A stretch of 64,000 nt of DNA from Ruditapes philippinarum (taxonomy: Eukaryota): positions 186,001 to 250,000 of the forward strand of contig NW_026853342.1 in NCBI RefSeq assembly GCF_026571515.1. Reading direction: 5' to 3'. The position numbers and the translations under genes were made by a program. The notes under the pieces are model-generated. The model was given only the letters and a program-made list of their open reading frames with translations, had not been told where the DNA came from and searched no databases. Shown in pieces: positions 1-60,201 of this stretch. Numbering within the stretch: the first letter of the stretch is position 1; each line of letters begins with the position of its first letter.

Positions 1-1557
1 GTTCTTATAACAAATATGTTGATGTTCTTAGACCCGTTTTTGTGTGGGAGAGTAGCTTTAAGGAATATGCGAAGTTTAATTTTAAAGATATATACCTTTA
101 AACAAATATATTACCTTTTATTAAACGTAAATCTTGACATAAGCAATAAAATAGCTTACCTTTGTATAGGTAATCATAATTGTCACCTTACGTAGCGTTA
201 AACATGTTTTAAAATACAAAATTCACTTAAAAGAGTCACTCTAGATAAGCTTCGATCAAAACTGTCTGTTTAACTACATGCATGTATACTAACGGTAAAT
301 CTATTTATATATCATTCAATGGAGATATCGATATGATGGACTATTGATTTTCTGCCTTGCAATTTTCAATTGTCAGTATACAGCCGGTTCTGTATTGACA
401 TAAATATTTTAAAATTTAAAACGATACCTGAAAATAGTTCCTAAACTTATAATGCATAATAGTACCGTCATAACATAACTTATTTGTTTGTACCCCGCTT
501 AAACTCTTTACTATATAGCCTTATTTGACGATCCTTGAAGTTAATAATTGTTGCAACATTCTCCAGGGGCGAGTAATCTATATACACTAAAAGGAACGTA
601 ATGTTCAAGTTCTCTCCCCTGATACAAATCGGTGATGAGTAATAATGCATAGCGGTGAAAAGTTACACTAAAATGTTAGTTCCATATAAACAAATTTTAT
701 TGGCATTATATAGTACATACATACTTATAGGCATATAACATTGTATTATAATTGTGGAAATTAAAACATGAAACAATGCGTATTTGTTTCAGGGAATGAA
801 GTTTAAGCAATTATTTGCTGTAACAAACATGTATATATTAAAACTTTAGAAAACATTGTTTACATTAGTTTATACCAACATTTACAAAGACAGCGTTTTA
901 CAAATATACAATTGAAAAATTAAGAAATGATATCGGAATTGTCTGTTAAACACCGGTGCGTACAAACTGACCACTAAGGCCGTATGATTTTTTTTTCTCG
1001 TTTGTATAGTTGGCGAACGGCAAAAAATGATATCCGTACAATTTTCGAATTTAAAATCGTGCTGATATGTAGTGCACGAGATAAAAGTGGTAAAGTGACA
1101 TTATGCCCATCTAAAGGTATATAGTGAGTGAACAGGTGAGAGTCAAAATAAATTTTCATTTTGCCATCATTCCTTTTGATTTAATAATTTACTTCGCAAA
1201 AACAATAAATAACCACCGGATTTTAATGAAATTTCAGTGAATGTCATTTAGAATTTACCTGTAACTTTCAATTTATAAAAAGAGTGGGGCAGTCTTTTTA
1301 TATTTAAGGCATATTTCAAAGTATATCCGTAACATTTTCCAATATAATCTGTTGGTCAAACATCATTTAAACAGTCAATCTTTTGAAATATAAAGTCAAT
1401 TAAGCTCAACTTCACATGAAAATATAAGCATAATGTCACTTTAAAGTACCCTGAAATCAACATTGTTGTAAGCGTCTGAAAGTAGTACTAGTATTTTATA
1501 AACTAGATTTATGTCACGGTTCAGAACTGTTCACTATTTAGGGGAGAAGATGTGTAA

Positions 1558-1634
1558 GCGGCCGGATAGCTCAGTCGGTAGAGCCGCGGAACGGTATTCC
1601 GAGGGTCCCGGGTTCGAGTCCCGGTCAGGCTGCA
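1558..1634 (+). pseudogene. tRNA-like sequence in the 5' LTR (GGT at the anticodon position, Thr-like; not a canonical tRNA gene)
   Basis: A box TAGCTCAGTCGG, B box GGTTCGAGTCC, T stem CCGGG/CCCGG. Acceptor and anticodon stems are imperfect. Followed by TTTTT. Confidence 0.75.
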
Positions 1635-1808
1635 CATTTTTCTCACCCTGTGACATTTGGCACCCAACGGGGGACCGTGACTGCTTATAGCTCAGAGTTC
1701 AATTAACATTGCTCTGTAGCTTTGTGAAATTCGAGGACGAATTTCAATATTGTGGTGAAGTATGTCACGGTTCAGAACTGTTCACTATTTAGGGGAGAAG
1801 ATGTGTAA

Positions 1809-1885
1809 GCGGCCGGATAGCTCAGTCGGTAGAGCCGCGGAACGGTATTCCGAGGGTCCCGGGTTCGAGTCCCGGTCAGGCTGCA
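1809..1885 (+). pseudogene. tRNA-like sequence in the 3' LTR (identical copy)
   Basis: Exact repeat of 1558-1634 within LTR2. Confidence 0.75.
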
Positions 1886-2799
1886 CATTTTTCTCACCCT
1901 GTGACATTTAGAATATATTTTATTAACAATTTTCAGAGTTTATAGATTAAATACCGGTACAATGAATAAATTATATTTTGCAAATGACGTACGTTGTGCT
2001 ATTTATCTTTTTTAGAGTGTGCGTGCGTCCTTAACAAGTTTTCCCATATAAAAAATGTATGCCTAAGTATTTGAATAATTCGACTATTTCTAATATCGAT
2101 TTATTTAAAGTCAAGTGGTTATAAGTGCGTCTTCCTTTTTTTCAAATTTCACATTTTTTTAATCTTTTTTAATATCAACTTAAATTCTCAATCATAACAA
2201 GTACTCACCAGGTTATTTCAAATATTTGACCGAACAGCTGTTGATGATTCTGTAAATAAAACAGTTTCGTCATCAAAGAAAATGAATAAATAATTTCTAT
2301 TATATACTAATAAAAGAAGAAGAAGTTTGTTCAACACTCCATTAGGCTAAAAAGCCCATGAGGATAAACATAGCACAAATATCTACATACAACTAACAGT
2401 GCATGAGCAATGAGAAACATGTTTGAAATAGAATGCGTATTTTCATATACCGTATTTACACTGTAAAATTTTATTTTTTACAGCAGTGACACATATTTTC
2501 CGGATTTTCACATGTGTCTTGCCGGACTACTTTCTTCTTAATTCAGTCAATACACAGAATTAAAATAGAAATCTTAAGTATTGTAAGGTCTAACATGATA
2601 CATAGTATATAATAAATAAAACATTCAAGTTTTTTCTAAAAATACTGGATTTATTTTCATCTTGTGAAATGAAAATTATCATATTTCACTTGTGGCTACA
2701 GCGACTAGTGAAATGTTTATTTTCATATCACTCAATGAAAATAAATACTGTATTTAAAGAAAAGACTTGAATATCTCTGAGAACGAAAAGCGCGAAACA

Positions 2800-3150
2800 T
2801 GACAGTACGATGGTAACAGTGCGGCAGTACGATGGTAACAGTGCGGCGGTACGATGGTGACAATACGACAGTACGATGTCGAAGCACGATGGTGACAGTT
2901 CGTACTGTCGTACTGTCACCATAATAATGTCGTACCGTCACCTTAGTAATTTCGTACTGTCACCATAGTAATGTCGTACTGTCACCATAGTACAGTAATA
3001 CTGTCACCATATTACTGTCGTACTATCACCATAGAACTGTCGTACTGTCACCATAGTACTGTTGTACCGTCACTATAATTATGTCGTACTGTCACCATTT
3101 TACTGTCGTACCGTCACCATAGTACTGTCGTACTGTCACAATCGTACTGA
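2800..3150. repeat. 21-bp minisatellite (GTACTGTCGTACTGTCACCAT-type) with an inverted block (foldback-like), copy 1
   Basis: Several GACAGTACGATGGT units are followed by an array of the reverse-complement unit. Confidence 0.8.
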
Positions 3151-3964
3151 GGCCGGATGGAGTACGATATGCTTTTGATATAGACATGTTGGACTCTGAA
3201 AATGAAAACGAGGTAATATGGGGTTTGATATGCATTTGGTATGTTAATTTCTACTCTGGAAATGAAAACGAGGCTAATTTTTAAAACAAAAATCATATCC
3301 CGACCGATCATTAGTTTTATTGAAACATCACGTGGTTCAAACGCTTTAAGTTGATTGGTTATGAACTAAATTTTTGCGAGTTTGATAAAGATTAATACAC
3401 CAAGGACAACAGTCCTTATATCGACCTTTATATTTTTTTAATTAGATCGCTAACCACCAGAATATGTTGAGCAAATATGAAATTAAAGTGCGACTACCCA
3501 TGCCTTTTGAAAATACAAATATTTAGTTTCAACGGGTTTTCTTTTTATCAACTGTTTTTGTCAATATTTTCAAATTTGATGACGTTAATAGTTTGAATAA
3601 CAATGACAAATCAATACGCGTGCAAACAGTACAGTGTTTACACTGAACAAAACAAAACAAAAAAAAAAGGTTTCTTTTCCCGGAACGAATATGAATTTAT
3701 AATAGATATAAAAGGATGAAAGAATACGTACGTGTTTAAACAGCAAGACTTGAGTAATTTAATAATGAATAAAACAAATATGCACAAGGTAAATTAGGCG
3801 TTAATAAGCAAATATAGTATATTGAGATATTGAACAATAGAAGACATTCAAATTTGAATGATTTAATTGGTTGATTTAAGTAACTTTACTTTATTTAATT
3901 CGATGGTCAGTGTAATGTTCAATCTAGCCTTGTAATTTAAGATCCCACAACGTGCTTAATTTTC

Positions 3965-5534
3965 ATGATAAAAATGAACATGATATTAAAAGGTAAGTAG
4001 TTTTTCTGAATTGTTCATATTTCAATCATATTTTGTTTTTCTTCCGTATTTTTCAATATAAATCACATTGACATCAAATTTAGTGACGAATTTTATGGAA
4101 AAAAGTTTAGGCTCATTTTAATATACTGGCAATTTACAAACAAAACACAAGCATATTGATGAAAATATTTCTGTCAAATTGACATGGATTATTATTATCC
4201 ATACCGACAAAATTACAAACTTTTCGACAACATTTCTAGCACATTGAAAATATTACTAGTACATGGGCGACAATAGACTATTTTTACAATATGATATTTC
4301 CATAGAAACGGAAGTAGCATTTCGCGCATGCACAAAAAAGCATTAACGCTAGAATACATTTTATCAGTATTTAAAAATTCTATTATCAAATTGATATAAT
4401 CTAAAAGATGAAACATAAGTTTAGAATATTTTTTTTTTCATTTTAAAAATGTAACAAAATTCGTAAAATTTTAAAGAAGCATTTTTCAACAAGAGCAATC
4501 TTACTTTATGATCTGTTAACGTTGTGAATGAAAGTGCGTGTCGTTAAGAGGCAAAATCAGTAAAAATGACTTTAAGCTTATAAAAACATTAAATAAATCA
4601 TGTAAATAGGAGATTTGTTCATTTTGTATGTAATATCAAAATATATACTACTTGAAAACATGCTTATGCTTCCAAGATTTGCTCATATTTATATAAAAAC
4701 AAATTGTGTTGCCCTAGAATAATAAAACTCGTCATAATAATTATAAAATATTTCAGTGCTCAGCGTCGGAATATTTCTTCCAATTGTCGCGTATTCTCTG
4801 ACACAGCTATCGGACAGATTCCGGACAGAATATGTCTGTGACATGGACTATGGACAGATTTTAGAGGAGACCGGTAAACGCAGTGTATTGTCTTGCGGAG
4901 GAACATGTTCCCGGAGAACGGACTGTCGATCCTTTGTTTTCAATCCTCAGGACAAGATGTGCCGATTGAACTCCAGGATTCTCCTATTTCCGACCTACGG
5001 ATGTCCCGTCGTAGTCAAATATGTGAGTAAAACAACGTTTTATTTAAAGGGACTCCAAGTTTTTTTTTACATGACAGGACTGGAAAAATGTTTTCGACAA
5101 AAATACTGTTTCAAACAGTGAAAATATCAGGTTTTTATTTCACTGATATATTTCTATAAACCACCGAAAAGCATCTGATAAATGCATATAATGATATGGT
5201 TTATTTAAATCTAATAACATTTTATTTTCAAAACAAAAAAAAATTCAAGTATTCAATGTTATATATCATTTCGTTGATAGCATGCTTGTTTGAAACTCAT
5301 TAGACCAAAATAGAACTTAGGAGTGATGCCATGTCTTTCTCTAGGGTTACTTTTTGGCTTCAAATCCCGGATTGACAACACCACCACCATTTGTAGGGAA
5401 AATTGTTGGCGAATCATGCATTGATAGCACAGAGTGCGTAGAAAATTTTACAGAATGCAGTGTAACTGATGTGTGTATGTGCCTACCAGGATATGTTTAC
5501 GATTATACAAACCGCACATGTATTTTCATAATGG
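3965..5534 (+). CDS. Secreted PAN/apple + Cys-rich EB-like module protein, duplicated 5' part (3 exons, truncated copy)
   Basis: Exons 3965-3992, 4757-5022 and 5345-5534 have GT-AG ends and consistent phases. Translation gives a signal peptide MIKMNMILKVLSVGIFLPIVAYS, a PAN motif CGGTCSRRTDCRSFVF...CRL, and GESC..STEC...TEC...VCMC.PGY. Confidence 0.75.
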
Positions 5535-5685
5535 GTAAATTGCATTTATTTCTTTAAAATCTTATTTAAAAAATCGGAGAACCTTTTGGCAACGATATAA
5601 TTATATGAAAAGGTGTATTCAACTTCAGCTTAAAAGAAGATAACCTGTGTTGAAAAGAGTATTGTGTGACCTTAAGGTAGTCTTA

Positions 5686-5929
5686 CTGTAATGCTTTCCC
5701 GCCAAAGAAATTCTAACATCGGCCAATACCGTAGCATATCGGTTATTTCCGGAACATTATTTTTTCAAAATCATTGGCTAAGATTATTTACAATCACTCA
5801 TCCTTTATTGCTATGTATGGTTATAAACGGTTAAAGATTACTTTGTTATTATAAAAATAACGTTCCGGAAATGACCGATTTTTTACGATATTGGACGATG
5901 TTGCAATTTTTAGGCGGGAAAACATTAAA
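5686..5929. mobile_element. MITE family A (TIR CTGTAATGCTTTCCCGCC...); further copies at about 10540-10797, 29059-29320 and 37567-37813
   Basis: Long imperfect terminal inverted repeats around a 240-260 bp element; four dispersed copies in the window. Confidence 0.7.
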
Positions 5930-6175
5930 ACGAAATATTATATTTATTAAAAAAGAATTCATTCGAGACAAACCTTTTTTGGCCGTTGCTGGGTAAATTT
6001 TGAGTTTTCTATTTGTTGTTTTGATTGCAAACTATCTGATTGAAACCTAATTTGTACATCATATTTCACTTGTGGCTACAGCGACTAGTGAAATGTTTAT
6101 TTTCATATCACTCAATGAAAATAAAAACTGTATTTAAAGAAAAAAAATATCTCTGAGAACGAAAAGCGCGAAACA

Positions 6176-6675
6176 TGACAGTACGATGGTGACAGTGCGG
6201 CAGCACAATGGTGACAGTGCGGCGGTACGATGGTGACAATACGACAGTACGATGTCGAAGCACGATGGTGACAGTCCGTATTGTCACAATCTTACTGTCG
6301 TACCGTCACCATAGAACTGTCGTACTGTCACCATAGTACTGTCGTACTGTCACCATAGAATTGCCGTACCGTCACCGTAGTAATGTCCTACCGTCACCCT
6401 AGTACTGTCGTACCATCACCACCGTACTGTCGTACCGTCACAATAGTAATGTCGTACTGTCAGCATAATACTGTCGTACTGTCACCATAATAATGTCGTA
6501 CCGTCACCTTAGTAATGTCGTACTGTCACCACAGTAATCTCGTACTGTTACCATAGAACTGTCGTACTGTCACCATAGAACTGTTGTACCGTCACCATTA
6601 TAATGTCGTACTGTCACCATATTACTGTCGTACTGTCACCATAGTACTGTCGTACTGTCACAAATATCGTACTGA
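6176..6675. repeat. 21-bp minisatellite with an inverted block, copy 2 (more units)
   Basis: Same structure as 2800-3150 inside duplication unit 2, with a longer array. Confidence 0.8.
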
Positions 6676-7479
6676 GGCCGGATGGAGTACGATATGCTTT
6701 TGATCGATATAGACATTTTGTACTCTGAAAATGAAAAAGCGGTTATATGGGGTTTGATATGCATTTGGTATGCTAATTTCTACTCTGGAAATGAAAACGA
6801 GGCTTATCTTAAAAAAATCTTATCCCGACCGATCATTATTTCTATTGAAACATCACGTGGTTCAAACGCTTTAAGTTGATTGGTTATGCCATGAATTTTC
6901 GCGAGTTACATAAAAGTTAATTCACCAAGGACAATAGTCCTTATATCGACCTTTATATTTTTTTAATTAGATCGCTAACCACCAGAATATGTTGAGCAAA
7001 TATGAAATAAAAGTGCGACTACCCGTGCCTTTTGAAAATACAAATATTTAATTTCAACGGACTTTTTATCAACTGTTTTTGTCAATATTGTTTTTATATT
7101 ATGACGTTATTAGTTTGAATAACAATGACAAATTAATACGCGTGTGACAAGTACAGTGTTTACATTGAACAAAACAAAACAAAAAAAAGGTTTCTTTTCC
7201 CGGAACGAATATGAATTTGTAATAGATATAAAAGGATGAAAGAATACGTACGTGTTTAAACAGCAAGACTTGAGTAATTATGAATAAAACAAATATGCAC
7301 AAGGTAAATTAGGCGTTAATAAGCAAATATAGTATATTGAGATATTGAACAATAGAAGACATTCAAATTTGAATGATTAAATTTGTTGATTTAAGTAACT
7401 TTACTTTATTTAATTCGATGGTCAGTGTAATGTTCAATCTAGCCTTGTAATTTAAGATCCCACAACGTGCTTAATTTTC

Positions 7480-10400
7480 ATGATAAAAATGAACATGATA
7501 TTAAAAGGTAAGTAGTTTTTCTGAATTGTTCATATTTCAATCATATTTTGTTTTTCTTCCGTATTTTTCAATATAAATCACATTGACATCAAATTTATTG
7601 ACGAATTTTATGGAAAAAAGGTTAGGCTCATTTTAGCATACTGGCAATTTAGAAACAAAACACAAGCATATCGATGAAAATATTTCTGTCAAATTGACAT
7701 GGATTATTATTATCCATACCGACAAAATTAAAAACTTTTCGACAACATTTCTAGCACATTGATAATATTACTAGTACATGGGCGACAATAGACTATTTTT
7801 ACAATATGATATTTCCATAGAAACGGAAGTAGCATTTCGCGCATGCCCAAAAAAGCATTAACGCTAGAATACATTTTATCAGTATTTAAAAATTCTATTA
7901 TCAAATTGATATAATCTAAAAGATGAAACATAAGTTTAGAATAATTTATTTTTCATTTTAAAAATGTAACAAAATTCGTAAAATTTTAAAGAAGCATTTT
8001 TCAACAAGAACAATCTTACTATATGATCTGTTAACGTTGTGAATGAAAGTGCGTGTCGTTAAGAGGCAAAAATCAGTAAAAATGACTTTAAGCTTATAAA
8101 AACATTAAATAAATCATGTAAATAGGAGATTTGTTCATTTTGTATGTAATATCAAAATACATACTACTTGAAAACACCAGCTCTTATGCTTTCAAGATTT
8201 GCTCATATTTATATAAAAACAAATTGTGTTGCCCTAGAATAATAAAACTCGTCATAATAATTATAAAATATTTCAGTGCTCAGCGTCGGAATATTTCTTC
8301 CAATTGTCGCGTATTCTCTGACACAGCTATCGGACAGATTCCGGACAGAATATGTCTGTGACATGGACTATGGACAGATTATAGAGGAGACCGGTAAACG
8401 CAGTGTATTGTCTTGCGGAGGAACATGTTCCCGGAGAACGGACTGTCGATCCTTTGTTTTCAATCCTCAGGACAAGATGTGCCGATTGAACTCCCAGATT
8501 CTCCTTTTTCCGACCTACGGATGTCCCGTCGTAGTCAAATATGTGAGTAAAACAACGTTTTATTTAAAGGGACTCCACTTAGGTATTTTTTACATGACAG
8601 GACTGGAAATACTTTTTCGACAAAAATGTTCCATTTGATGTAGATCGAGACCATTAACTTGTGTGGAAAATTTCAGATCATTCGCTTACTCTGTTTTTCC
8701 CAAAATAATTATTTTAATTATGAAAAATGACCCAAATTTTTAAAGCGTTGCAACGCTTTTCACTCCAATCGGGCTAAAAATAGCACAAAAATATAATTTT
8801 CAATTAATTTCTTAGCATATTTCGTAATTATCTTTGCATATATTTCAAATGTAAGGCCATGATCTATGTAAGAAATTAAGAAATTAAAATTTTGTATTTT
8901 TTCTATACTTTTACACCTCAGTTGAGTTCCTTTAAATATAAAATATGACATTTGTTTAAATTGATATAACATTCAGCGTTTGAAGCACGTGATGCTGCAA
9001 TAGAATTCATTATTGGATCCAATCTTATCAATTTAGCCTCGTATTCATTTCCAAAATCCAAAACATACATATCAAATGCATATCATACCTAATATAGCCA
9101 TATTTTCATTGTCAGATTCAGAAATAATGCATATCGTACTTCCTCTAGCTTCATTTTCATTTTTCAGGGTCAAAAATTCATATCATTCACGTATTGTACC
9201 CTTAGTAACAAAGTTCTGTCAAAAAATGTGAAATCAATGGGTCATTATACATTGTTGGCAACAATACTGCTTAAATTGGACTCGTACACAGCTGTAAAAC
9301 CTATATCTGACTCGACTCATTGTCCAATAAACGATTTCGTCAAATAGAATCCAGTATTACACTCAACAGCGGATAATAACTTCATGAATAAAACATGATT
9401 GTAAATCATGATATCTTTTGAGTACGTTTGGTATATTAACGTTTTATATTTGCGATTTGACTGAATTTAGTTAAAAAGTAGTCCGGCAAGTTACCAGTCA
9501 GTGAAAATACGGAAAATTTGTTTCACAGCGCGAAACATGAATTTTTACAGTGAAAATACGGAAAATCAAAATACGCACTTTATTTCATCAATCAATATTT
9601 TATTTATATAAAGGATATTTGTTTAGTTCAGTGTAAGATCGGGACATTTTTCACCGAGTGAGCACCAAAAGGTATATTTCACGAGTTGCGCAGCCTGGAG
9701 TGAAATATGAACTTTTTGTATTCACGAGATGAAATATATTCCGATCTCACAATAAAGCAAACAATTTTTTTATTATATGCAAACAAACGTTTAAAAAGAC
9801 ATTTTAACCTAATGCTAAATGAAAACCGAACCAAACAATAATACAACGATGTCAAGTCAGTAAGTTGGTTTCCAGTACTGTGAACGCTAGTATTTCTCTG
9901 AAACAACGTGACGGGCTTAAATTTAAAACTGTGAAATATATCAAATTGATAATTTCACTGTTTCAAACAGTGAAAATATCAGGTTTTTATTTCACTGATA
10001 TATTCTATAAACCACCGAAAAGCATCTGATAAATGCATATAATGATATGGTTTATTTAAATCTAATAACATTTTTATTTTCAAAACAAAAAAAATTCAAG
10101 TATTCAATGTATATTACATTTCGTTGATAGCATGCTTGTTTGAAACTCATTAGACCAAATAGAAATTAGGAGTGATGCCAGTCTTTCTCTAGGGTTACTT
10201 TTTGGCTTCAAATCCCGGATTGACAACACCACCACCATTTGTAGGGAAAATTGTTGGCGAATCATGCGTTGATAGCGCAAGAGTGCGTAGGAAAATTTTA
10301 CAGAATGCAGTGTAACTGACGTGTGTATGTGCCTGCCAGGATATGTCTACGATTATACAAAACCGCACATGTATTTTCATAATGGGTAAATTGGCATTTA

Positions 10401-13400
10401 TTTCTTTAAAATCTTATTTAAAAAAATCGGAGAACCTCTTGGCAATGATAATAATTTATATTAAAAGGTGTATTCAACTTCAGCTTAAAAGAAGATAACC
10501 TGTGTTGAAAAGAGTATTGTGTGACCTTAAGGTAGTCTTACTGTAATGCTTTCCCGCCAAAGAAATTCTAACATCGGTCAATATCGTTAGCAAATCGGTT
10601 ATTTCCGGAACATTATTTTCAAAATCATGGGCTAAGATTATTTACAATCACTCATCCTTTTATCGCTATGTATGGTTATAAACGGTTAAGGATTTTTGCA
10701 TGCCGAAATATTGTTATTATAAGAATAACGTTCCGGAAATGACCTATTTTTACGATATTGGACGATGCTGCAATTTTTAGGCGGGAAAGCATTAAAACGA
10801 AATATTATATTTATCAAAAAAGAATTCATTCTAGACAAACCTTTTTTGGCCGTTGCTGGGTAAATTTTGAGTTTTCTATTTGTTGTTTTGATTGCAAACT
10901 ATCTGATTGAAACCTAATTTGTACATATAATTAATCACTCGGGCCTATTTGCTTTCGAGAATACACACTTGCGCATTTGAATCCGAACAGTGCATAAATT
11001 TTACAACAATGCACTTAAAATGTATATCTATTTAATTTCTTATTTTATAGACTGTCCAGCGTATGGAATTACGTTTCAGATGTGTCAGTAACGACCGAAT
11101 ACAGGCTCATTGTGGACATTTCTAAACAACGTGACGGAGGACGAATGTAGAGCTATATTTTGACCACTAACACAATTCACATGCCGTATATTTGAGTTCA
11201 GCTATAAGAGATATGGAATGTAAAGTTTTTTCCTTAGACACAATTCCGACAACAAACATAATTGATGGATTACGAACAAAGAGTACGAAATTTTTTGTCT
11301 ACGCACGTGACTGTGCACTTCGGCTACGACCATGTTTTACGGCATGTGACGTCAACAGTGATTGTTTGGAACGTGATTCGGTGTGCTTTCAGGGTATTTG
11401 TCTCTGTAGGGTTGGCTTCAGCTATGATTCCGAGCAGAGGAAATGTGTTTCAGGTACATTACTTACACTATATGTACTCTTTTCAGTTTCAGCCATTTTT
11501 TTTGTTGTTATTGTTGTTTTTGTTGATGTTGTTGTTGTTTGTTGTTTTTACCCAATCAATGATTACTGCGCAAATTCTGATGATTATTATTCATGACCAG
11601 GAAAAAGATCATATTATTCATTTAACGATGGTGGCAATATGGCTTGAGTTAGATACAAATAATATTATTGAAAATTAAAACATTATACGCGGTAAAAACA
11701 AGAGAACATTTCCTTTAAAATGTTAGCCCGCATACAAAAGGTCATTGTTCATAAATATCAGCTGATGTTTATATACACCAACATTTTTTATAGTTTTATT
11801 TTTTAATTGAAAAGGTACAGACCATCCTGCTGTCAAATTCCCATTACCTTTTTTCTATAATTGTTTTTTTCTTTTAGAGAATGATCTTATTTGGTAACTA
11901 AAATAAATAGATGTTCTACTGTTTTAATTGATGTGTTTTATAAATATGCCGTTTGATGTCCAACATATGAATGTTGTGCGAAGAATAATAATTCAGAGAT
12001 TATTGCTGTGTAACATAATTATGAATAAAAAATATATTTCAATTGAGATAAGGAACAAAACGCATCAGTTTTTTTATGTGATAATTGCATAGCCGTGCCG
12101 ATTTTGCGACTCCGTAAAAATGGTATTGCACAACCGTGCATATATTTCGACGTGACGTCATTTGCGTTGTATATAATAAAAAAATAGCGTTAAAACGCGC
12201 TATTTGTTAGCGTTACAGTATAGGCGCGTCATTGGAAAAAAAGATTTTTTTCCAATTTAAACACTCTTTCTTTTTTTGGTATGTGATAAATAGAATATTA
12301 AATTCGTGTAAGTTCATTACTGAATTTATTGAACTCGTTGAATAGAATAATAATAAGCTCGCCAGAAAGGCTGGCATAATATAATTTTATTCAACAAGTT
12401 CAATAAATTCAGTATCGAACCTAATACACTCATGTATGCAATTATAAAAAATGTGATAAATGGTTTTAAATATTTTACCTTTGCTTAAATTCCAGAATGC
12501 TTTCTTTACTCGAAACCAATGACTGGAAACTCTTACCAAAGGATATCCGGGATATACATAACACACTTCAATTTCTCTAGAACATATTCCGTTCAAAATG
12601 GTGCGGAATGCCTGAATTATTGTACGTCGGATACCAACATCAGTTGTGTAAGCCTAATGACAGACACGATTTCCTCCACGTGCTTCCTGTCGGAACAAAC
12701 GCTCGGTGTATACCCAGATTCTAGCTTCGTGACAAATTTTGCCTACACTATTGTACAGTTGGACTGCGAGCCAATGACCTCACCCATCGAAATGATCCCG
12801 TGCTATGGGAATGTGTGTTCCGCTACCAACAGCGAATGTCGCGACAGTGTCTGCAAATGTGTAAAAGGCTTACGCTACCAAGCATCTCTAGACCAATGCA
12901 CTGAAAGTAAGTACAATCAAATTGTATTACATGTCGCTTATATACTTACTTCAATTGCAAAAGTTATCAAACGACATTATGCACGGCCATTTTGAACAAA
13001 TATTAGTATCCAGCTTTATTTGTCATCCAATGAAAATGCTTCATTTCTTAAACATTCTGTGTGTTTATTTTCATAGAAGAACAAATATCGATACCAAGTC
13101 CGATAATAGTGAACACTAAAGATGATCATTATATAAATATTAAGTGTCATTAAAAAAAATGGCATTTTTTTTACCAACTTTTCATGACCTGTTAAAGGGA
13201 ACGCAGCTTCCCATACATAGTTTATTCATTCTTTTATTCAAATTAAACATAGATCTACTCAGTAAGAATTTCATATATTTCAATAAATGTCTGTGATTAA
13301 AATATTTTACTCAAAGATGAGCATAGTATATCTTTAAATAAAAAAGATATAAGTTAGTAAATTTACATTTTATCAAGATCAGATAGTCTCTACCATATTG

Positions 13401-22392: not shown

Positions 22393-24097
22393 ATGATACC
22401 AGTTTATCGCACTTTTATGTGTAATATGATATCAGTTTATACCACTTTTATTTATAATATGATATCAGTTTATACCACCTTTATGTGCAATATGATACCA
22501 GTTTATACCACTTTTATGTGTAATATTGATACCAGTTTATACCACTTTTATGTGCAATATGATACCAGTTTATACCACTTTTATGTGCAATATGATACCA
22601 GTTTATACCACTTTTATGTGCAATATGATACCAGTTTATACCACTTTAATGTGCAATATGATACCAGTTTATACCACCTTTATGTGCAATATGATACCAG
22701 TTTATACCACTTTTATGTGCAATATGATACCAGTTTAAACCACTTTTATGTGCAATATGATACCAGTTTATACCACTTTTATGTGCAATATGATACCAGT
22801 GTATACCACTTTTATGTGTAATATGATACCAGTGTATACCACTTTTATGTGCAATATGATACCAGTGTATACCACTTTTATGTGTGATATGATACCAGTT
22901 TATATTAATTTTATGTGTAATATGATACCAGTTCATACCACTTGTATGCGTAATATGATACCAGTTTATACCACCTTTATGTGTAATATGATACCAGTTT
23001 ATACCACTTTTATGTGTAACATGATACAAGTTTATACCACTTTTATGTGTAACATGATACCAGTTTATACCACTTTTATGTGTAATATGATATCACTTTA
23101 TACCACTTGTATGTGTAATATGATACCAGTTTATACCACTTTTATGTGTAATATGATACCAGTTTATACCACTTTTATGCGTAATATGATACCAGTTTAT
23201 ACCACTTTTATGCGTAATATGATACCAGTTTATGCCACTTGTATGTGTAATATGATACAAGTGTATACCACTTTTATGCGTAATATGATACCAGTTTATA
23301 CCACTTTTATGTGTAATATGATACCAGTTTATACCACTTTTATGTGTAACATGATACCAGTTTATACCACTTTTATGTGTAATATGATATCACTTTATAC
23401 CACTTGTATGTGTAACATGATACCAGTTTATACCTCTTTTATGTGTTATGTGATACCAGTTCATACCACCTTTGTGTGTAATATAATACCAGTTTATACC
23501 ACTTTAATGCGAAATATATTACCAGTTTATACCACTTTTATGTGTAATATGATACCAGTTTATACCACTTTTATGTGTAATATGATACCAGTTTTAACCA
23601 CTTTTATGTGTAATATGATACCAGTTTATACCACTTTTATGTGTAATATGATACCAGTTTATACCACTTTTATGTGTAATATGATACCAGTGTATACCAC
23701 TTTTATGTGTAATATGATACCAGTGTATACCACTTTTATGTGTAATATGATACCAGTTTAAACCAATTTTATGTGTAATATGATACCAGTTTATACCACT
23801 TTTATGTGTAATATGATACCAGTTTATACCACTTTTATGCGTAATATGATACCAGTTTATGCCACTTGTATGTGTAATATGATACCAGTTTATACCACTT
23901 TTATGTGTAATATGATATCAGTTTATACCACTTGTATGTGTAATATGATACCAGTTTATACCACTTTAATGTGTTATATGATACCAGTTTATATCACTTT
24001 TATGTGTAATATGCCACTTTTATGTGTAATATGATACCAGTTTATACAACATTTATGTGTAATATGATACCAGTTTATACAACATTTATATGTAATA
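22393..24097. repeat. 33-bp minisatellite (ATGATACCAGTTTATACCACTTTTATGTGTAAT)
   Basis: About 50 tandem units; accounts for the repetitive MCNMIPVYTTF ORFs. Confidence 0.95.
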
Positions 24098-24306: not shown

Positions 24307-27300
24307 ATGGGACGTATCGCAAGAATGTTGTTGTTGTTGTTGTTGGCCTGCTATATAACATATGGAGGAGCTTTCTTTACCAGTAAGTACCTCACACCAG
24401 ATTAATACAATATCTTTATAGTTCTTTGTTTGCGAGTTCAAGTAATAAATTTTTGTTCAAAACTTTAATGTAAAGTAATTTTAGAAGTCCACTTTGCACA
24501 AAATATTAAGTAAGATGATGTAATTTCTACAACTTGATGCCTATATATGTCACATTTATTGACTTCTTTGCATGTCACACTATTTGTCACATATATGTCA
24601 CATTTATTGGTTTATCTCAACATGTCACCCAAGCTCGCTCGAAAGATATGATCATTCATTTTGGCAGCAGCAGCTTATTTTTCTCCATGATGCATAAAAA
24701 ATGCTCTCCTTGATCTCTCGTACATCATATTGGTAAACATCACAAAAAATCAACTTGCATACATATTAAGTATAATTCAGTGAATAACTGTATTCAAAAT
24801 GTATAGGTGACATTTAAGGATATGAAACAAGGGACGTCATTCATGTGAATATGATTAGATAACTCCAGTCTAACTAGCTTGACAAAAAGTATGTATTGTA
24901 AATAAATAAAAAAAAAACGTTTCATATAAATATAAATATAATAACACAATAAATTGTTATCAATTTTATTTTAAGTACTTCTGATATACGTTGCCAAATT
25001 CGACTGAACTTAAAAAAAAACAGTCGGAAATTTTTTACTCGTATATAGTGAAAACAATGGCCTAAAATGGCATTGTGATCTTTTTCTCTGTCAAGTTGAG
25101 CTGAATTAATTTCAAAAGATGGATTATTGTATTAGTAATTGACCAATTAGAAATAAAAACCATTTACTATGTTTGTGATATAATATAAAAGGGCATAAAT
25201 AATATAAAGACTGCCCCACTTTTTTTAAGAATTGAAAGTTACCGGTACATTCTAAACGTTATTTATAAATATTTTCTTCAGTCATATGAATTATTGGTTA
25301 TATTTTTCATAGTAAAATATAAAGTTGAATATCATGACTGCAAAATGTCAGGTTATTTTTAATTTTACATGTTCGGTGATCATTAACACTTAAATGGACA
25401 TTTCTTATATCACTTTTAATTAACAATGAAGATTTGCTATACATGTATTTAAGATCTCACTTTCCCGGGCAAACATACATTATGTTTAAAGCTGCATGCC
25501 TCCGGTTGAACTAAAATATTTCACGAAAATCAGACTTGAAAAAAAAGAACTGAGATTTTAAGGAAAGTAAAAAGATTGAAAATAAAAGTAAAAATGTTTA
25601 TGTTATGTGCGATTTATAATCGATTTTGCAGTATTTTTCACCATATTTCTACTGCGTTACTAACTCATTAAGGGCTATATTTTGTATATTTCGACCTCAT
25701 AATTTACATAGATTGTAAGTGCTGTTCGCAATGTAAAAATAATTTATTTGTTCACGTCACAATACTTTACTTTATTATTTATTTTCATTTTTTTTATGTA
25801 AATAAGCACGAATCTGGAGGCGTGCTGCTTTAAAGCTATCGGAGAATTATATGTATTCTAATTATTTATTTCTTCCTTTCTGACGAACAGATGTACAGAA
25901 GAGGTTCAACGGTGAATTGTTACCGGCCGATCCGCTCGTGTGTACAACACAGAATGTTACTTTCACATGTGTACTGAACGACGACCCAGTATCGAACTTT
26001 TCCATTGGCTTTACCTTTAAAACTAGAGAAACAAATGGAAAATTTGTTACTGTAGATCAGAATAGAGTCACACATATAAACGAGACGATGGCTCAATATA
26101 CGGTGACCTCTATCCCGCCTCTTTCGGATGTCAACAAGCCCTACTTCATGTATGTTAAAAGCTTTTACTGGCAAGAAATCGGCGATATTAATGAAACATT
26201 ACAGCTTGGAACCACCACTTCAGTTCGTGTTTACCGTAAGTTCGTATTTTCCAAGTTCGAGTTTACCAAGTTCGAGTTTACCGTAAATTCGTATTTTCCA
26301 AGTTCGAGTTTATCAAGTTCGAGTTTACCGTAAGTTCGTGTCAACCGTAAGTTATGATACATTTTTGTATATGTTATCAACTACATTGTCAACCATAGGC
26401 GCAATACGTGTAGGAAACAATACGTTATCCCTGATTTGAAGATATGCCAACAACAAAAACACGTCATTTAAGCTACGCCTGATAAAGTAAAAACTTCCAA
26501 AAGAACTATTCGTACTTTTTTTTTTTTTCAAAAAGTATGTCCACCTATGAAGAATAACAAAAAGTTACTGAGTAGGTTTTTGTAGAATTTTGATTACGAA
26601 TACACTAAATTTGCTACCTTTATAGAACATCACTTTGAACGATAAATGCAATAAAAGAAAAAGAAAAAGAAGTCAAAAGATTACTTAAAGGATTGCGAAA
26701 ATGCGTCCCTTTTCCTTACATATATAATTCGCTTATTGTTGCGGCTAATAGATTGTCAACAAACTTATTCTATATGAAAACACATAAATTTGAGAAAAGA
26801 AAATTCAAAAGAAAAAAATAAAGGAAAAGTAACACTAACAACAAAAAGATAAAAGAACATTTTAAACCACATTTGCTTGGTCTTATAAGGGTACAAAAAT
26901 ACAAAATAATTACAAAATTAATTCATTTTTTTCAGCAATGCCCGAAGAGGTGAAAGATTTTGCCTGTATCGTGAATAATTACAAGACGATGATTTGCTCC
27001 TGGAAGTACGGGACAGATTACGGCAATTACATGCCGGAAGTCATCTTTTTGTGGTAAATATTTTTAGCTGCATGGCCCAATGGTTACCATGTCGGATTAG
27101 TAATTAAAGGATTTCGCGTGGATTCAAACCCCTTGAGCTAGAAACTTTACACTCATTGCTAAGTACTGGTTGTTTCCAGGAACGGATTCGAGTTTTTAAA
27201 TAAGCTTATAACTTCCTACGCAATCGAATTAAAATAATTCCGTACGTAATAAGTTCATGTATAATAGTAATTTAGTGTTTTGTATGGAAGTCAAAATACT

Positions 27301-30300
27301 GTTTTGTTTACATTTTGCTGATTTTATAACAAATTATTGTACATTAAGCGCTTTTTTATTCAGGTATCAAGCATCTAGCATTCTCCAAATTTATTATAAT
27401 ATTAAACATTATAAAATTAATGTTTGCTTTTTCTAAAGAAGAAATTATTTGTTTGTTTCTGAGGCATAATGTGCGACATTATAAAACTAATGTTTGACCT
27501 TTCTACAGCAGTGATTTTTTTCATTTCGGAGGGATGACGTGCCTTTCATGAATAATTTTAAAAGGAACTCAAAAAAAATTATTAGCCCCCTTACATTATA
27601 ACATTAATGATATGAAGTAAGTTAATAGATAATTATATTAATTTATAAATGTCAATTATACACCATTTTTATATTTAACCAGTGTCTGCTTTATCATCTG
27701 TGACAGTCATTCTTCACTTTTATTCATGGCGATTACTTTTTGCAGGATAAGGCACGAGTGATTTTATAAAGATTTTGTCTTAAGAGTAAAGTTAGGACTA
27801 TTCCTAAGTACAAGAGTTAGGACAGTTTCTTGAAACGCTCCTAAGTTTAGTCTTATGTTTGAGACTTACGATTCTTTATGAAACGCACCCAAGGAGAATA
27901 GTTCATTAAAAAGAGTTTGTTTTTATTTCAGGAGGATCCCATACTACAGTACATCTTGGACCGAATGTAAATACTTAAACACCAAAGATGGGTCCTGCAC
28001 ATGGAATGAAACAAGGGCTGGATATTTCAAAAATTCTAACATCACCATTAGACTGACGTTGAAACAGCGGTGTAAAATTGACGTCACTTCCGAGTTTCAT
28101 ATAGATACGTCAAAAATAGGTTTGTTTACATTATATGTGTTGTACCTACGCATGTATGTTACCCATGTGTTCCATATTCCATCCATAGAAAACATATATT
28201 AATTTATCCAGGGGCTTTTGAGAAATATACTTATGTTAGCAGGTTGTACAGAAGTGGGTGTATTGCATTGTGATACTGTATAGTTATGAAAAATGCATTA
28301 TTTTTGTATATCGAACATTCTAACACTCACGTGATTTTGTCCCTATAGACAAAGAAGGAAAAAACTGGTGTTAAACTGCCAATAAGCACCGGTTAAGGAC
28401 TACTTGTATATGCGCTGTTATGTTTTCATCCTCGATTACATAGTTTACAAAGCATTTTAAAGCAACAATAAAAAACATTTTTATTTATATTTTCAGTTCG
28501 TATAATGTTTTCTTTTCATACAATACCGAAATAGTATCTCACATACACTAACGCCACAATCGTCATATAAGATCCATATATCAGTTAATAAATATTTTGA
28601 CAAAAAGGTATTGTCGTTTTGATGCGACAAAATTAAACACTCAGGCCTACGGCCTACGTGGTCAATTCCTACGCATCAAAACTCCAAACCGGTGTTAAAT
28701 AGCCGATATACACTTCTCAGGCCGATGTTATTTCTTAAGTATTTTTTACTTTTTACACTGGTGCTAGAAAAATCTGTGATGCTTATCATCTGTGCTTATC
28801 ATCGGAACAAAAAGCGCGCAATTACAAGTGATTTGTTACAAATATGCAAAATGTAACCGAAGGAATATTTTGACTTCCATACAAAATAATAAATACCTTT
28901 TAACTTTATTTACTTTAAATACTACAAAAGAATCTAAATAAGGTTCAGCTATTTAGTCAATGACTATTTCTTTGGGCCACTGAATCTGGACACTAAATCT
29001 ATAAAGAGTTTGCCAAATCAAAATATTAGCATTTTGGAGGCTTATTGGCCTTTTACATACAGTAATGCTTTCCCGCCAAAAAAAAAAATCTAACATCGGC
29101 AAATATCGTAAAACATCGGTCATTTCCGTTATTTTTCACAATATTCGGTATTCAATAAGTTTTGACCTTTTATAATAAATATATAGAACATAGCGATAAA
29201 GGAAGAGTGATTGTAATTATTAATCTCATTCCCCGGATTTTGAAAAAAATTACATTCCGGAAATAACCGATTTTCTACGATATTGGCCGATGTTAGAATT
29301 TCTTTGGCGGGATGACTACAATAAATATTTCACTTGTCGTCTGATTCTTAGAAAACTATTTATATAACATACATCCTAGAGTTTATATTTTGACTTCTAC
29401 AAATAGTTATGATAATACATAATGTATCGGGCTGATTCAAATGATACATGTAAATAATATTGATTACATGGAAATCGAACATCTTTCGTCCTCACACATC
29501 AAAAATATGAAGAAGAGTCATCAGGTACTTCAGCAATGATAAAAGTATAAAAGATTAAATATATCCTTAAATGTACACGTCGATTTCTACAAATAGTTTT
29601 ATTATCTGTGTTTTGATATCCGTTTCATATTAAAATTAATTTTCACATCGATATTTGAGCCGCGTCACGACAAAACCAACATAGTGCGTTTGCTACCAGC
29701 ATAGATCCAGACAAGTCTGCGCATCCGCGCAGTCTGACCAGGATCCATGCTGTTCGCTTACCAACTCTATTACAAGTAGAGAAACGGATAGCGAACAGCA
29801 TGGATCCTGATCAGACTGCGCGGATGCATGCTGGTCACAAACCAATTATGTTGGTTTTGTCGTGACACGGCTCATGTATATTTCAGTAAAGCCGGATCCT
29901 GTTTCCAGTATCAGATCTAACGTTATAAGCAGTACTTGTATCACGTTGCTATGGAAGGCCGCAAATTCTGGACCGTTTTATCCGAAAGAACATTTAATTA
30001 CAGTGTCGAGTCGTGGAGTTGCTGTAACTGTACGTAATTTAGTCCATGAATTTGTACGTTTTAGTCCATTTAACTGTAAGTAATAGTCAATGTAACTGTA
30101 CGTTATAGTCCATGTAACTGTACGTAATAGTTCATGTAATTGAATGTAATAGTCCATGTAATTGTACGTTATTGTCCATGTAACTGCGCGTAATAATTTA
30201 TGTAAATGTACGTAATAGTCATGTAACTGTATGTAATAGTTCATGTAATTGTATGTAAAAGTCCAAGTTACTATACGTAATATAGTCCATGTATCTGTAT

Positions 30301-33300
30301 GTAATAGTCCATGTAACTGTATGTAATAGTCCATGTAACTGAACGTTATTGTCCATGTAACTGTTCGTTAAAGTTCATGCACTTGTACGTAAAAGTGCAT
30401 GCAACTGTACGTTTTAGTCCATCTAAGTGTACGTAATTGTCCATGTTACTGTACTTAATAGTCCATGTTACTGAACGCAATAGCTAATTTAACTGTGCAT
30501 AATAGTCAATGGACATGTACGCAATAGTCAATAATACTGTACGTAATAGTCCATATAACTGTACATAATTGTCCAGGTTACTGTACGTTATAGTCCGTGT
30601 AACTGTACGTAATAGTCTATGTAATTGTACGTAATAGTCCATGTAATTGTACGTAATAGTCCATGTAACTGTACGTAATTCTTCATGAAACTGTACGTTA
30701 TAGTCCATGTAACTGTACGTAATAGTCTATGTAATTGTACGTAATAGTCCATGTAATTGTACGTAATAGTCCATGTAACTGTACGTTATAGTCTATGTAA
30801 CTGCACGTAATTGTTCATGTAAGTGAACCGAAAGTCCAAGTAAGTGTACGTAATAGACCATGCAACTGTATGTTATAGTCCATGTAACTGTACGAAATAC
30901 TCCATGTAACTGTACGTAATAGTTTATGTAACTGTACGTAATAGTCCATGTAACTGTACGTAATAGTCCATGCAACCATGTAACTGTACGTTAAAGTCCA
31001 TGTAACTGTACGGTATGTCCATGTAATTGTTCGAAATAGTTCAAGTTACTGTACGTAATTGTCCATGTAACTGTACGTAATAGTTCATGTAACTGAACGT
31101 AATAGTCAATGTAACTGTACGTAATAGTTCATGTAACTGTATGTAATAGTCTTTGTAACTTCACGTCATTTTTAAGTAACTGAACGCAAAAGTTCAAAGA
31201 ACTGTACGTAAGAGTCCATGCAACTGTATGTTATAGTCCATGAAACTGTGGGGTATAGTCCATGTAACTGTACGCAATAGTCCAAGTAACTTTACGTAAT
31301 AGTCCATGCAACTGTATGTAATAGTCCATGTATCTGTACGTAATAGGTCATGGAACTGTACGACTGTACGTATTACTCAAATACAACTGTACGTAATAGT
31401 TTCTGTAACTGTACGTTAAAGTCCATGTAATTGTACGTAATAGTTCATGTAATTGTACGTAATAGTTTATGTTACTGTATGTTATAGTCCATGTAACTGT
31501 ACGTTATAGTCCATGTAACTGTACGTAATAGTTTATTTAACTGTTTGTAAAAGTTCATGTAACTGTACGTTATAGACCATATAACTGTACGTAAAAATTT
31601 TATGTAACTGTACGTAATAGTTCATGTAACTGTACGTTTTAGTCCATGTAATTGTACGTAATAGTCTATGTAAATGTAAATTGATCATGTAACTGAACGC
31701 AATAGTCCAAGTAACTGAACGTAATAGTCCATGCAACTGTACGTTATAGTCCATGTAACTGTACGTAATACTCCATGTATCTGTACGTAATAGTTTATGT
31801 AACTGTACGTAATAGTCCATGTAACTGTACGTAATAGTCCATGCAACAATGTAACTGTACGTTAAAGTCCATGTAACTGTATGTTATAGTCCATGTAAAT
31901 GTACGTAATAGTCCATGTAACTGTACGTAATAGTCCATGCAACTATGTTACTGTACGTTAAAGTCCATGTTACTGTACGTAATAGTCAATGTAACTGTAC
32001 GTTAAAGTTCATGCAACTGTATGTTATAGTCCATGTAAATGTACGTAATACTCCATGTAACTGTACGTAATAGTTAATGTAACTGTACGTAATAGTCCAT
32101 GTAACTGTACGTAATAGTCCATGCAACTACATTTTCGTAATAATTCCATGTAACTGTACGGTATGTCCATGTAACTGTACGCAATAGTCCCAGTAACTGT
32201 ACGTTATAGTCCACGCAATTGTATGTAATAATCCATGTAACTGTAGGATATAGTTTATGTAATTGTACGTAATAGTTTATGTAACTGTATGGAACAGTTC
32301 ATATCACTGTACGTTATAGTCAATGTAACTGTACGTTATAGTCCATGTAACTGTACGTAATAGTTTATGTAACAGTATGTAATAGTTCATGTAACTGTAT
32401 GTTATAGTCCATGTAACTGTACGTAAAAGTTTATGTAACTGTACGTAATAGTTCATGAAACTGTACGTTTTAGTTCATGTAACTGTACGTAATAGTCCAT
32501 GTAAATGTTCGTAATAGTCCATGTAACTGTACGTTATAGTCTACGTAACTGTACATAATAGTCCAGGTAACTGTACGTAATAATCCACGTAACTGTACGT
32601 AATAGTCCATGAAACTGTACGTAATAATCCACTTAACTGTACGTAATAGTTTATGTAAATGTACGTAATAGTTCATGTAACTGTACGTAATACTTCATGA
32701 AACTGTACGTAATAATCCACTTAACTGTACGTAATAGTTTATGTAATTGTACGTAATAGTTCATGTAACTGTACGTAATAGTTCATGAAACTGTACGTTA
32801 TAGTCAATTTTACATTGAAGAAGCCATATTAACTGAATACTTGTAATTTCTCATGAGAGTAGTGTTACTCATAAACCTTGAGAAAGGAACGTGATAAATT
32901 ACATAGTATACATGAAAGAAAAGATGAAAACGTAATTGTTGTATTCTTATTGGGTGGGATAGGTACAGAAAGGGATGGCAATGTCTTATGAAATATAACT
33001 CAATTCAAACGATATGTTATGCTTCAGAAATTCATATCTTAACTATGCTTTAGAAATGTCAAGCATGCGTATAATATTCTAATAATGAATTTAAAGAACG
33101 ATAGATGTTTAACAGCTGAAGAAAGAAGTGCTGAATTTGCAGTACTGTGTCGTTAAAGTAGCAAAATGTAAACAAAGTAGTATTTTGACTTCCATACAAA
33201 ATATTAACTCACTGTAATTATACCAATCGCCAACAGAGAAAAAGAAGAAGAAAAGAGTTCATCTATATGACAAATGAGTATTTTTGAGATTTTTTTTTTT

Positions 33301-46500: not shown

Positions 46501-47780
46501 CAAAACCCGAAAAAAATGAATGTCTTAAAGATATGCCTAACTGGACATAACACAAGCATTCAAAATAAATCTCGATTTTTGTAGGAGTCAAATCTGTATA
46601 AAACATAATCATTGCAATCATCATTTACAAAATTACGTGATCAATTTAATCATTATCACTTTACTATCTATACGTACTACAATCATGTAAGGCTAATTGC
46701 TACAACCTATCCTTTTTGTTAAATCAACACCATACTTCTTTTCAGCCTATCGACAAATGGTGTGAAGATACCAAAGGGAGTTAACTTTCACCTCATCGGA
46801 CTTTCTGATAGTGATTCTATGGTTCCGGCACCGCCCACTTTAAGAGACTTTTCAACTTGGGAAATGAAATCTCTGTCATCCATAAGACGGTCACTAAATC
46901 ATAAAAAGGTTTGTGATCATAACAATTTTTCAAACGTTGGGTTTTAATGCTTTTGCATGTTACGGACCTGTAAGGTTCTTGCAATAATGATAATTGATGT
47001 TCTTTGTTAAATAATAGATTTATCTTGTATAATCTAGTTCCTGGATAGTTTATAGCATTACGTAGTGAGTGAAGTCGTACACCCATAAATGCAACATCCT
47101 CGTTGATTGGCTCTTGGGTTTACTTAATGCGACGACAGAGAAAGGGATAACAATAGAAAAGTCATATTCAGTTGCTCGTACATTTGTTACTTTTTTCTCG
47201 GGTTTCATATTTTGACGACATCGATTTTTTTTTCTATGATACAAAAGTGAAAGAACATCCAAAAAACCTCTGTATTGTAATTTATACTCGGGGACTATGT
47301 ACCCTCAAACAAATCAGACAGCTTCGCGATGCTCTTTTTATAACTTAGCTCTAGACTTGTTATCAACGCTTAACGAATATGACAATTTTTTTTCAGAGAT
47401 ATATAGATATTTTGAAGATCGATATTGAAGGCTGGGAATGGAAAGCTTTACCTGCCGCCATACAGTCACGTGACCTAAGCTATGTGAGACAAATTTGTTT
47501 GGAAATTCATTTCGGATTTCAGTTTAAGAATGTATGGCCTGACAACCGTGAAATGGATTATAAACAACTTTCAAACACTACATGGGGCGATGTTACATTT
47601 GCCAATCAAATTGAAGTGTTGAGAGGTCTGTATGACAACGGATTTAGGATTTTTCGATGGGAGCTTGTCCCAGGTTGCAGAATGTATAAGTCAAGAAATT
47701 CTCAAAAAATAATCAATGTGCTCGTAGAAATATCGTTAGTGAATATACATCGTGAAATGGACGCCATAGAATCACGATGA
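40566..47780 (+). CDS. METTL24: Methyltransferase-like protein 24 family (Methyltransf_22/FkbM-like), about 331 aa, with an N-terminal signal anchor
   Basis: Exons 40566-40670, 42913-43052, 44288-44416, 45589-45663, 46746-46908 and 47397-47780 join in frame. Motifs CLVYSFG, FEFE...CEIHTFDPS, IDILKIDIEGWEW, VRQICLEIH, LYDNGFRIF. The first exon is the least certain, and this is family-level similarity rather than proven orthology. Confidence 0.8.
43343..43579. mobile_element. Palindromic MITE family B, full-length copy
   Basis: TGAGCCGCGTCACGACAAAA...TTTTGTCGTGACGCGGCTCA. Confidence 0.85.
46425..46554. repeat. Tandem duplication of about 65 bp (2 copies)
   Basis: TTCGTTCCGGTGCAAA...GACATAACACA occurs twice. 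Confidence 0.8.
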
Positions 47781-55148: not shown

Positions 55149-55443
55149 GGTTTAGGCTCACCCACTGCTTGTGACAATACACCTGGTTTGATAAATTTCA
55201 AAGTAGGTGTGGGTAAAATGTAACCGAGCGTGCTGCTCAAAAGAATTAACCAGATGGGGTCTTTTGATTCTAAACAGAGCTGAACAATAGACACGGCTAA
55301 CACGAAGTAAATGGCAATGATCTGTGACACGTACGTCAATCTGTTTTTCGGTTCTAGAGATTTCGAAATGATGGAGCTGCTTCTGTTGCTCACCTGTACG
55401 CTGACCGAATCTAACTGTGGCATCTTTTGTGTAGTGTCTTCCA
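55145..55443 (-). CDS. Small two-helix membrane protein of the Polinton
   Basis: Likely start MEDTTQK; two hydrophobic segments ending WLILLSSTLGYILPTP; packed between the integrase and penton genes. Confidence 0.65.
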
Positions 55444-55445
55444 TT

Positions 55446-56552: not shown

Positions 56553-56553
56553 A

Positions 56554-57704: not shown

Positions 57705-57758
57705 GATGTCTTGTTTTCAAATGAAGCTCTCTTCAGTCTGTTGTCTCTTTTTATATGC

Positions 57759-58586: not shown

Positions 58587-58632
58587 GACTGCACCTTGGC
58601 AAATGAATGCAAACTGTATTCACTCTTCCTTT

Positions 58633-59288: not shown

Positions 59289-59357
59289 ACTGATCAATGA
59301 CTCAATGAAAACAAAACAACACATGCATTCTTCTTTATACTTTTATTTTTTTTCAAT

Positions 59358-60192: not shown

Positions 60193-60201
60193 GTTTCTGA
60201 C

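Follow-up and report, generated by a model that had tools for sequence, protein, structure and literature searches.

Helenus elements are TRIMs that carry a tRNA-derived unit in their LTRs together with a PBS and a polypurine tract (PPT) (Kojima 2024, PMC10886601). According to the accessible parts of that paper, animal Helenus elements have TSDs of 4 bp, pteriomorph bivalves contribute 51 families, tRNA-Lys is a common primer, the A and B boxes are conserved across Helenus, Gypsy elements are the inferred helpers, and promoter function is described as unvalidated; the literature that we searched yielded no later functional study. Two other systems, Cassandra of plants (PMC7215508) and Ajax of nemerteans (PMC10886601), resemble the element described here in that both are TRIMs with a Pol III-type small-RNA gene and its terminator in both LTRs, and LTR-LTR pairing has been predicted for them. 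In contrast to our element, they carry 5S rRNA-derived sequence rather than a tRNA, the TSD of Ajax is 5 bp and, as far as these partial sources go, transcripts have been demonstrated for only one of the two, Cassandra. A further bivalve TRIM with an internal inverted repeat, biv-TRIM (PMC6934838), has repeats of 202-218 bp around a 77-80-bp internal domain, no canonical PBS and the PPT GGGGAGA, and the available part of its description mentions no tRNA unit in the repeats.

We found a TRIM of 395 bp, with an internal part of 107 bp between its two LTRs, in the window, by which we mean the whole 64-kb stretch of DNA analysed (Table 1). An earlier note on this DNA had described identical 144-bp LTRs, a 4-bp TSD, a Lys-type PBS and, in each LTR, a tRNA-like unit with A and B boxes followed by a T5 run, and all of these features were recovered. 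The LTRs agree at 144/144 positions and end in TGTCAC/GTGACA; a repeat finder gives 149 nt instead of 144 because the match continues into the ends of the internal part, which agree with the letters of the TSD. The start word of the LTR occurs twice in the window, compared to 0.01 occurrences expected. The probability that the TSD matches by chance, computed from the composition of the flanks, is 0.008. Compared by eye with the 3' end of Aplysia tRNA-Lys-CTT (Fig. S2 of PMC10886601), the PBS forms 15 Watson-Crick pairs and one G-U over 18 positions, leaving two mismatches. The two T5 runs are the only runs of four or more T inside the TRIM. The PPT of this copy is poor, with 9 purines in the 15 nt preceding the 3' LTR. 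The interval holds no ORF of at least 100 aa, and there is neither a second copy of the TRIM nor a paralogous empty site within the window.

Table 1 Features of the TRIM and its flanks (positions in the window).
Feature	Position	Strand	Basis
5' TSD, TTTA	1508..1511	.	sequence; chance 0.008
5' LTR, 144 bp, TGTCAC...GTGACA	1512..1655	+	repeat search; loose read ends at 1512 and 1655
Purine-rich U3 tract, complementary to T5-containing 1632-1649	1540..1556	+	copy in 3' LTR at 1791-1807; folding and shuffles, significant here, not in the second family
tRNA-Thr(GGT)-like unit, putative Pol III internal promoter	1560..1632	+	A box 1567-1578, B box 1611-1621; ARAGORN, Rfam
T5, putative leaky Pol III terminator, 5' LTR	1637..1641	+	leakiness inferred from published in vitro data
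PBS for tRNA-Lys-CTT	1658..1675	+	15/18 Watson-Crick and 1 G-U in this copy, by eye
Internal hairpin 1, predicted	1685..1720	+	folding prediction
9-bp hairpin with AGGA loop, candidate helper-recognition signal	1725..1746	+	common to oyster Helenus and other LTR elements
Weak polypurine tract	1751..1762	+	purine-richer form in other copies
3' LTR, same as 5' LTR	1763..1906	+	tRNA-like unit 1811-1883, T5 1888-1892
3' TSD, TTTA	1907..1910	.	sequence

The element has the structure that defines animal Helenus: it is a non-coding TRIM shorter than about 1 kb, with a tRNA unit in its LTRs, a PBS, a 4-bp TSD, membership in a dispersed family and a unit that is not its own primer. With its own PBS, the unit forms no more than bulged duplexes, at -7 to -15 kcal/mol (energies that carry no shuffle control), in which the 3' end is out of register; this agrees with Kojima (PMC10886601). 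The assignment to Helenus made in the earlier note stands, and can be narrowed to the group of oyster families Helenus-3_CGi, -3_CVi, -4_SaGl and -4B_SaGl, which appear to be the nearest named relatives. These share the LTR ends TGTCAC...CCTGTGACA, the 9-nt end motif having four matches in the supplement, as well as a Lys-CTT PBS after TTT, a 4-bp TSD, and a Thr(GGT)-like unit whose loop contains the same word, ACGGTA, and which is followed by a T run (PMC10886601). An 18-nt word of the internal hairpin is found exactly in Helenus-3_CGi and, by eye across line breaks, in 4_SaGl and 4B_SaGl, and the oyster elements are similar in size, with LTRs of 139-140 and internal parts of 103-120, compared to 144 and 107 here (PMC10886601).

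The supplement as available to us also shows differences. The combination of 144 and 107 is absent from all bivalve rows of Table S1 (PMC10886601), four 13-14-nt words of this copy have no match in the supplement, where line breaks may hide matches, and the PBS match extends over 18 nt here, compared to about 12 in oyster Helenus-3/-4. The U3 (by eye) and the tRNA stems are unlike those of the oyster elements, and the PPT is weak in the lineage of the window. We rejected membership in the named Helenus-3_CGi or -4_SaGl on the differing lengths, the lack of word matches and the unlike U3, a judgement made by eye and word search. Identity with biv-TRIM was rejected as well, given the size of the repeats (144 vs 202-218 bp) and the canonical PBS present here. 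Comparison with published Helenus entries, as far as the supplement could be consulted, gave shared termini, PBS, unit and hairpin in the oyster families and no exact match; by these comparisons, by eye and by word, the TRIM appears to represent an unlisted Helenus family of a type already published for bivalves. The host is probably a bivalve, judging by these relatives and by the public sequence sets that contain the DNA, some of which are mollusc metagenomes. It would add one family to the 51 bivalve Helenus families.

The earlier note had called the insertion very young. The identity of the LTRs is confirmed; youth is bounded only loosely, since 0/144 differences give a 95% upper limit of 2.1% divergence. 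Identity of close, short repeats can also stem from gene conversion or from homogenisation during assembly, and the scaffold has two N gaps. A recent insertion is likely. In the public reads, one contig from run X1 spans the left junction (1416-1539) without a difference, and one from run X2 equals 1906-2036 without a difference and then continues with 18 unplaced letters beyond 1906. The X2 contig fits an empty allele, because base 1507 is the same as base 1906. The joint expected of an empty site, 1511-1911, is not among the 15 of 110 joints listed, and the X2 contig is only suggestive of an empty allele at this locus.

To look at the family as a whole, we mapped four public runs (X1, X2, X22 and X24, of which X22 and X24 are RNA) onto positions 1200-2200 of the window; runs X18-X20, with small shares, lay outside this mapping. 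Depth in the LTR bins is 4,096-9,189 in X1, compared to 3.8-17 in the right flank, and 73,283-177,536 in X2, compared to 13.6-56.5, though depth does not equal copy number. Loose read ends pile up exactly at 1512, 1655, 1763 and 1906, and their continuations are mixed and TA-rich (agreement 0.41-0.52). Because the loose ends stack at four boundaries with mixed continuations, the element has fixed ends and many insertion sites; the family is an abundant, dispersed repeat with these exact ends.

The reads also show that the family is split into variants. At 1662, most of the depth has G (1449/1800 in X1, 160/243 in X22), which restores pairing in the PBS. Nearly all X24 reads carry changes at 1662, 1670 and 1674 that give an 18/18 match to the end of Apis tRNA-Lys-CTT in Fig. 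S2 of PMC10886601, a comparison made by eye on unphased reads. The PPT is purine-richer in X22 (54/69 reads at 1751); X24 carries the form seen in the window (13/13), so the weak PPT is a trait of a lineage rather than private decay of this copy. An intact, short copy from an abundant family that is split into PBS and PPT variants is of some use as a test object, suited to asking whether Helenus is in fact transcribed by Pol III, how it passes its own terminator, and how a TRIM without LTR likeness to its helper is recognised.

ARAGORN and Rfam both call a tRNA, Thr-GGT, in each LTR (Rfam 48.7 bits, compared to a gathering score of 29), and make no other tRNA or Rfam call in the 64-kb window. 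The risk of mis-annotation as tRNA genes, raised in the earlier note, is real: both programs fall for it. A search with patterns that we take to represent the A and B boxes found only two box pairs in the 64 kb, 1567/1611 and 1818/1862. Several features of the unit speak against a working tRNA: C33, at a position where tRNAs near-universally have U, A32, a G-U as the first pair, and G-A mismatches in both the acceptor stem and the anticodon stem. In folding predictions the cloverleaf reaches -23.0 kcal/mol and an alternative rod -31.1 kcal/mol, a difference of about 8 kcal/mol in favour of the rod, and the fold of the unit is no better than that of shuffles (z -1.14). Moreover, T is the base at 1590 in about 60% of the depth of X1, X2 and X22, and this variant disrupts one more pair of the anticodon stem. 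G34 tRNAs of four-codon boxes are nearly absent from, and toxic in, eukaryotes (PMC7293025), and a function of the unit in translation is unlikely on these sequence features. Four oyster families also have a unit able to encode tRNA-Thr-GGT (PMC10886601, Fig. S1), which together with the two program calls is what favours taking the units for working tRNA-Thr(GGT) genes spread by the TRIM, or for two tandem tRNA genes or SINEs; set against the broken stems and the weak cloverleaf, we find such readings very hard to believe. The two-SINE version is excluded by the LTR termini, the PBS and the one shared TSD. Kojima already points to the risk of mis-annotation (PMC10886601), and the find illustrates how the number of tRNAs counted in mollusc genomes becomes inflated.

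We are fairly confident that the TRIM is a recently inserted, full-length, non-coding copy of an unnamed bivalve-type Helenus that would move by a combination of Pol III transcription and a Gypsy helper. For the Pol III step itself we lean moderately in favour. TFIIIC would bind the A and B boxes of the 5' LTR and Pol III would start near 1560. Termination at the first T5 would leave many transcripts as a short RNA of some 80 nt. The fraction that passes it would end at the second T5, and the resulting RNA, some 330 nt long, would carry an R of roughly 80 nt at each end. This implies a layout in which U3 would be 1512-1559, R 1560-1641 and U5 1642-1655, and an R repeat of about 80 nt would suffice for strand transfer. 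Gag, RT and integrase would come in trans from a Ty3/Gypsy element of the host, with host tRNA-Lys-CTT as the primer at the PBS, and new copies would integrate at TA-rich sites and duplicate 4 bp there. The helper may recognise the AGGA hairpin that precedes the PPT.

The T5 inside the LTR, which the earlier note had found puzzling, is indeed there. It is no oddity, judging by the portion of the literature at hand: by eye, many Helenus LTRs in the Kojima supplement have T runs after the B box (PMC10886601), and leaky termination can explain this common trait. In vitro, human Pol III terminates at T4-T9 with an efficiency of 52-65%, rising to at most 73% when a hairpin lies next to the run (PMC13385618), and in yeast T-tracts are not always sufficient for termination (10.1101/2021.08.27.457903). 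That these data were obtained in vitro with human and yeast enzymes weighs against the model. Because termination at such runs is leaky, the T5 presents no real paradox. If each T5 stops the enzyme with a probability p of 0.5-0.7, p(1-p) would leave about 20-25% of the RNA at full length. The earlier note had also written of a Pol III promoter in each LTR; the A and B boxes are confirmed, and promoter activity is better worded as putative.

The RNA runs neither favour nor refute the Pol III model. X22 and X24 reveal no Pol III transcript and no piled read starts or ends on the TRIM, and such unstranded, 150-nt reads would miss a short uncapped RNA. Mapped reads continue into unrelated sequence in 92% of cases in X22 and 85% in X24, with both strands equal. 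Because the reads run on, the strands are equal and there are no pile-ups, the RNA signal reflects copies inside longer transcripts, or DNA. Copies in longer transcripts keep a Pol II route open, in which the transposing RNA would be made by Pol II from a promoter in U3 or by read-through from a host gene, the tRNA unit would be a passenger or an enhancer, and the T5 would be irrelevant. A TATTTA word at 1535-1540, about 25 nt ahead of the tRNA-like unit, would suit a U3 promoter, and in X22, 117 reads extend across 1512 and 158 across 1906 into flanks of mixed sequence, as read-through would have it; concatenated read-through transcripts have been reported for Cassandra (PMC7215508). However, the A and B boxes are intact here and are the best-kept parts of the LTR in an alignment with a distant family, they are kept throughout Helenus in the sources available to us (PMC10886601), the LTR is without an obvious poly(A) signal, and Pol II read-through leaves the retention of a T run after the unit unexplained. 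We therefore consider transcription by Pol II rather unlikely, and continue to prefer the Pol III model.

Folding raised a second alternative, one in which structure takes part. The LTR folds better than 200/200 shuffles (z -3.21), and in the RNA predicted for 1560-1892 the T5/U5 region of the 5' LTR is paired, at a probability of 0.83, to the purine tract of the U3 in the 3' LTR. The duplex, at -17.8 kcal/mol, is reached by 14/5000 shuffles of U3, 93/5000 shuffles of the arm and 0/3006 genomic 42-mers; with slightly different limits it is reached by 0/1000 shuffles. The full-length RNA might then be a rod in which the 5' T5/U5 and the 3' U3 are paired, joining the ends for strand transfer and keeping RNase P and RNase Z away from the tRNA fold. 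The rarity of the duplex among shuffles and genomic 42-mers argues for this, as do a similar complement in different letters in the LTRs of oyster Helenus-3/-4, seen by eye in the supplement (PMC10886601), and the comparable LTR-LTR super-hairpin modelled for Cassandra (PMC7215508). Yet purine and pyrimidine tracts pair easily, and in a second TRIM family described below none of 15 LTRs reaches 5% in the same shuffle test (best 65/1000). We rate the rod as possible and on balance doubtful, and on the strength of the second family we rejected U3-U5 complementarity as a general rule for Helenus. Nor can this pairing account for read-through at the first T5: when the polymerase reaches it, the partner tract is still untranscribed. 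The Pol III model with leaky termination remains our preferred account of that step.

The internal part carries a 9-bp hairpin with an AGGA loop whose pairing probability is at least 0.95 in folding. Its core word occurs 11 times in Data S1 of Kojima, and by eye both arms of the stem differ in sequence while the loop stays the same in families of Pinna, scallop and Lineus and in Ajax (PMC10886601). The word 'hairpin' is absent from the Kojima main text as accessible to us (PMC10886601), and we found no paper linking the loop word to retrotransposons in the openly accessible literature searched, the single paper returned being unrelated.

A scan of metagenome contigs with the hairpin word returned at least 120 loci, among which the invariance of the word holds by construction, as the word was the query. 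Among the 120 loci listed, 31 belong to a second tRNA-LTR TRIM family with the same hairpin, T4 and tandem arrays. Another 16 show the hairpin, a purine tract and TG, as in the 3' ends of LTR elements; they are putative Ty3/Gypsy ends. Among the remaining 73, many look like chance matches in bacterial coding DNA. Eight loci (L003, L010, L022, L035, L047, L059, L078 and L090) share another repeat that has the hairpin word and neither a purine tract nor a B box.

The second family is apparently an unlisted Helenus-type family from an animal host (L043:1260-2057, L118:127-550, L088, L103, L110 and 26 more loci). Its LTRs are 152-153 bp, with a tRNA-Ala(TGC)-like unit, its PPT is non-purine, it occurs in tandem arrays, and the 2/2 copies with both ends have a 4-bp TSD. 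The PBS is Ser-like by eye against Fig. S2 of PMC10886601. In one copy (L105:320-380), the 3' LTR is replaced, right after the position of the PPT, by an apparent tRNA gene that is Asp-like by eye.

The earlier note had supposed that an autonomous partner may still be active. Our search found none: the LTR-end word has no match in the metagenome and viral contigs, the hairpin and LTR-PBS words have none in the viral contigs (three viral-contig scans in all without a match), and 0/9 ORFs near hairpin matches have a Pfam match. As a speculative proposal, the hairpin could be an ancient cis-signal, conserved in structure, through which the machinery of Ty3/Gypsy recognises the RNA, for packaging or for placing plus-strand priming. 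It would be common to bivalve Helenus, Ajax, the second animal TRIM family and the ends of plant-type LTR elements, and it would let lineages persist with a barely purine-rich PPT; we think this improbable as it stands. If true, the AGGA hairpin, the pairing of 5' U5 with 3' U3 and a leaky T5 would make up a minimal, testable cis-code for TRIM RNA produced by Pol III, and the by-product would be a plentiful tRNA-like RNA some 80 nt long. The conserved AGGA hairpin is the one lead worth following.

The window holds several other features. Just upstream of the TRIM, at 1091-1443, lies a MITE-like repeat with a 16-nt perfect terminal inverted repeat and high depth in the public runs; related copies are found near 25063-25374 and 48643-48882. 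A Polinton/Maverick-like endogenous element occupies 52550-62619 on the minus strand, where GC rises to about 40%. It encodes a protein-primed type DNA polymerase B (PF03175, 2.6e-37), an rve integrase with a chromodomain and a weak match to an A32-type ATPase, and has two ORFs of 477 and 430 aa without a Pfam match, which presumably resemble capsid genes. A recent local tandem duplication (2678-6059, 6058-8627 and 9957-10926; 94% identity over 2.2 kb) carries a PAN-domain exon twice, at 4747-5121 and 8267-8638. Exons of an Ig/fibronectin type III receptor-like gene at 25884-33609 are broken up by long minisatellites, with 33-bp units at 22393-24013 and 22-bp units at 30023-32805, and an exon of an FkbM-type methyltransferase lies at 47355-47780.
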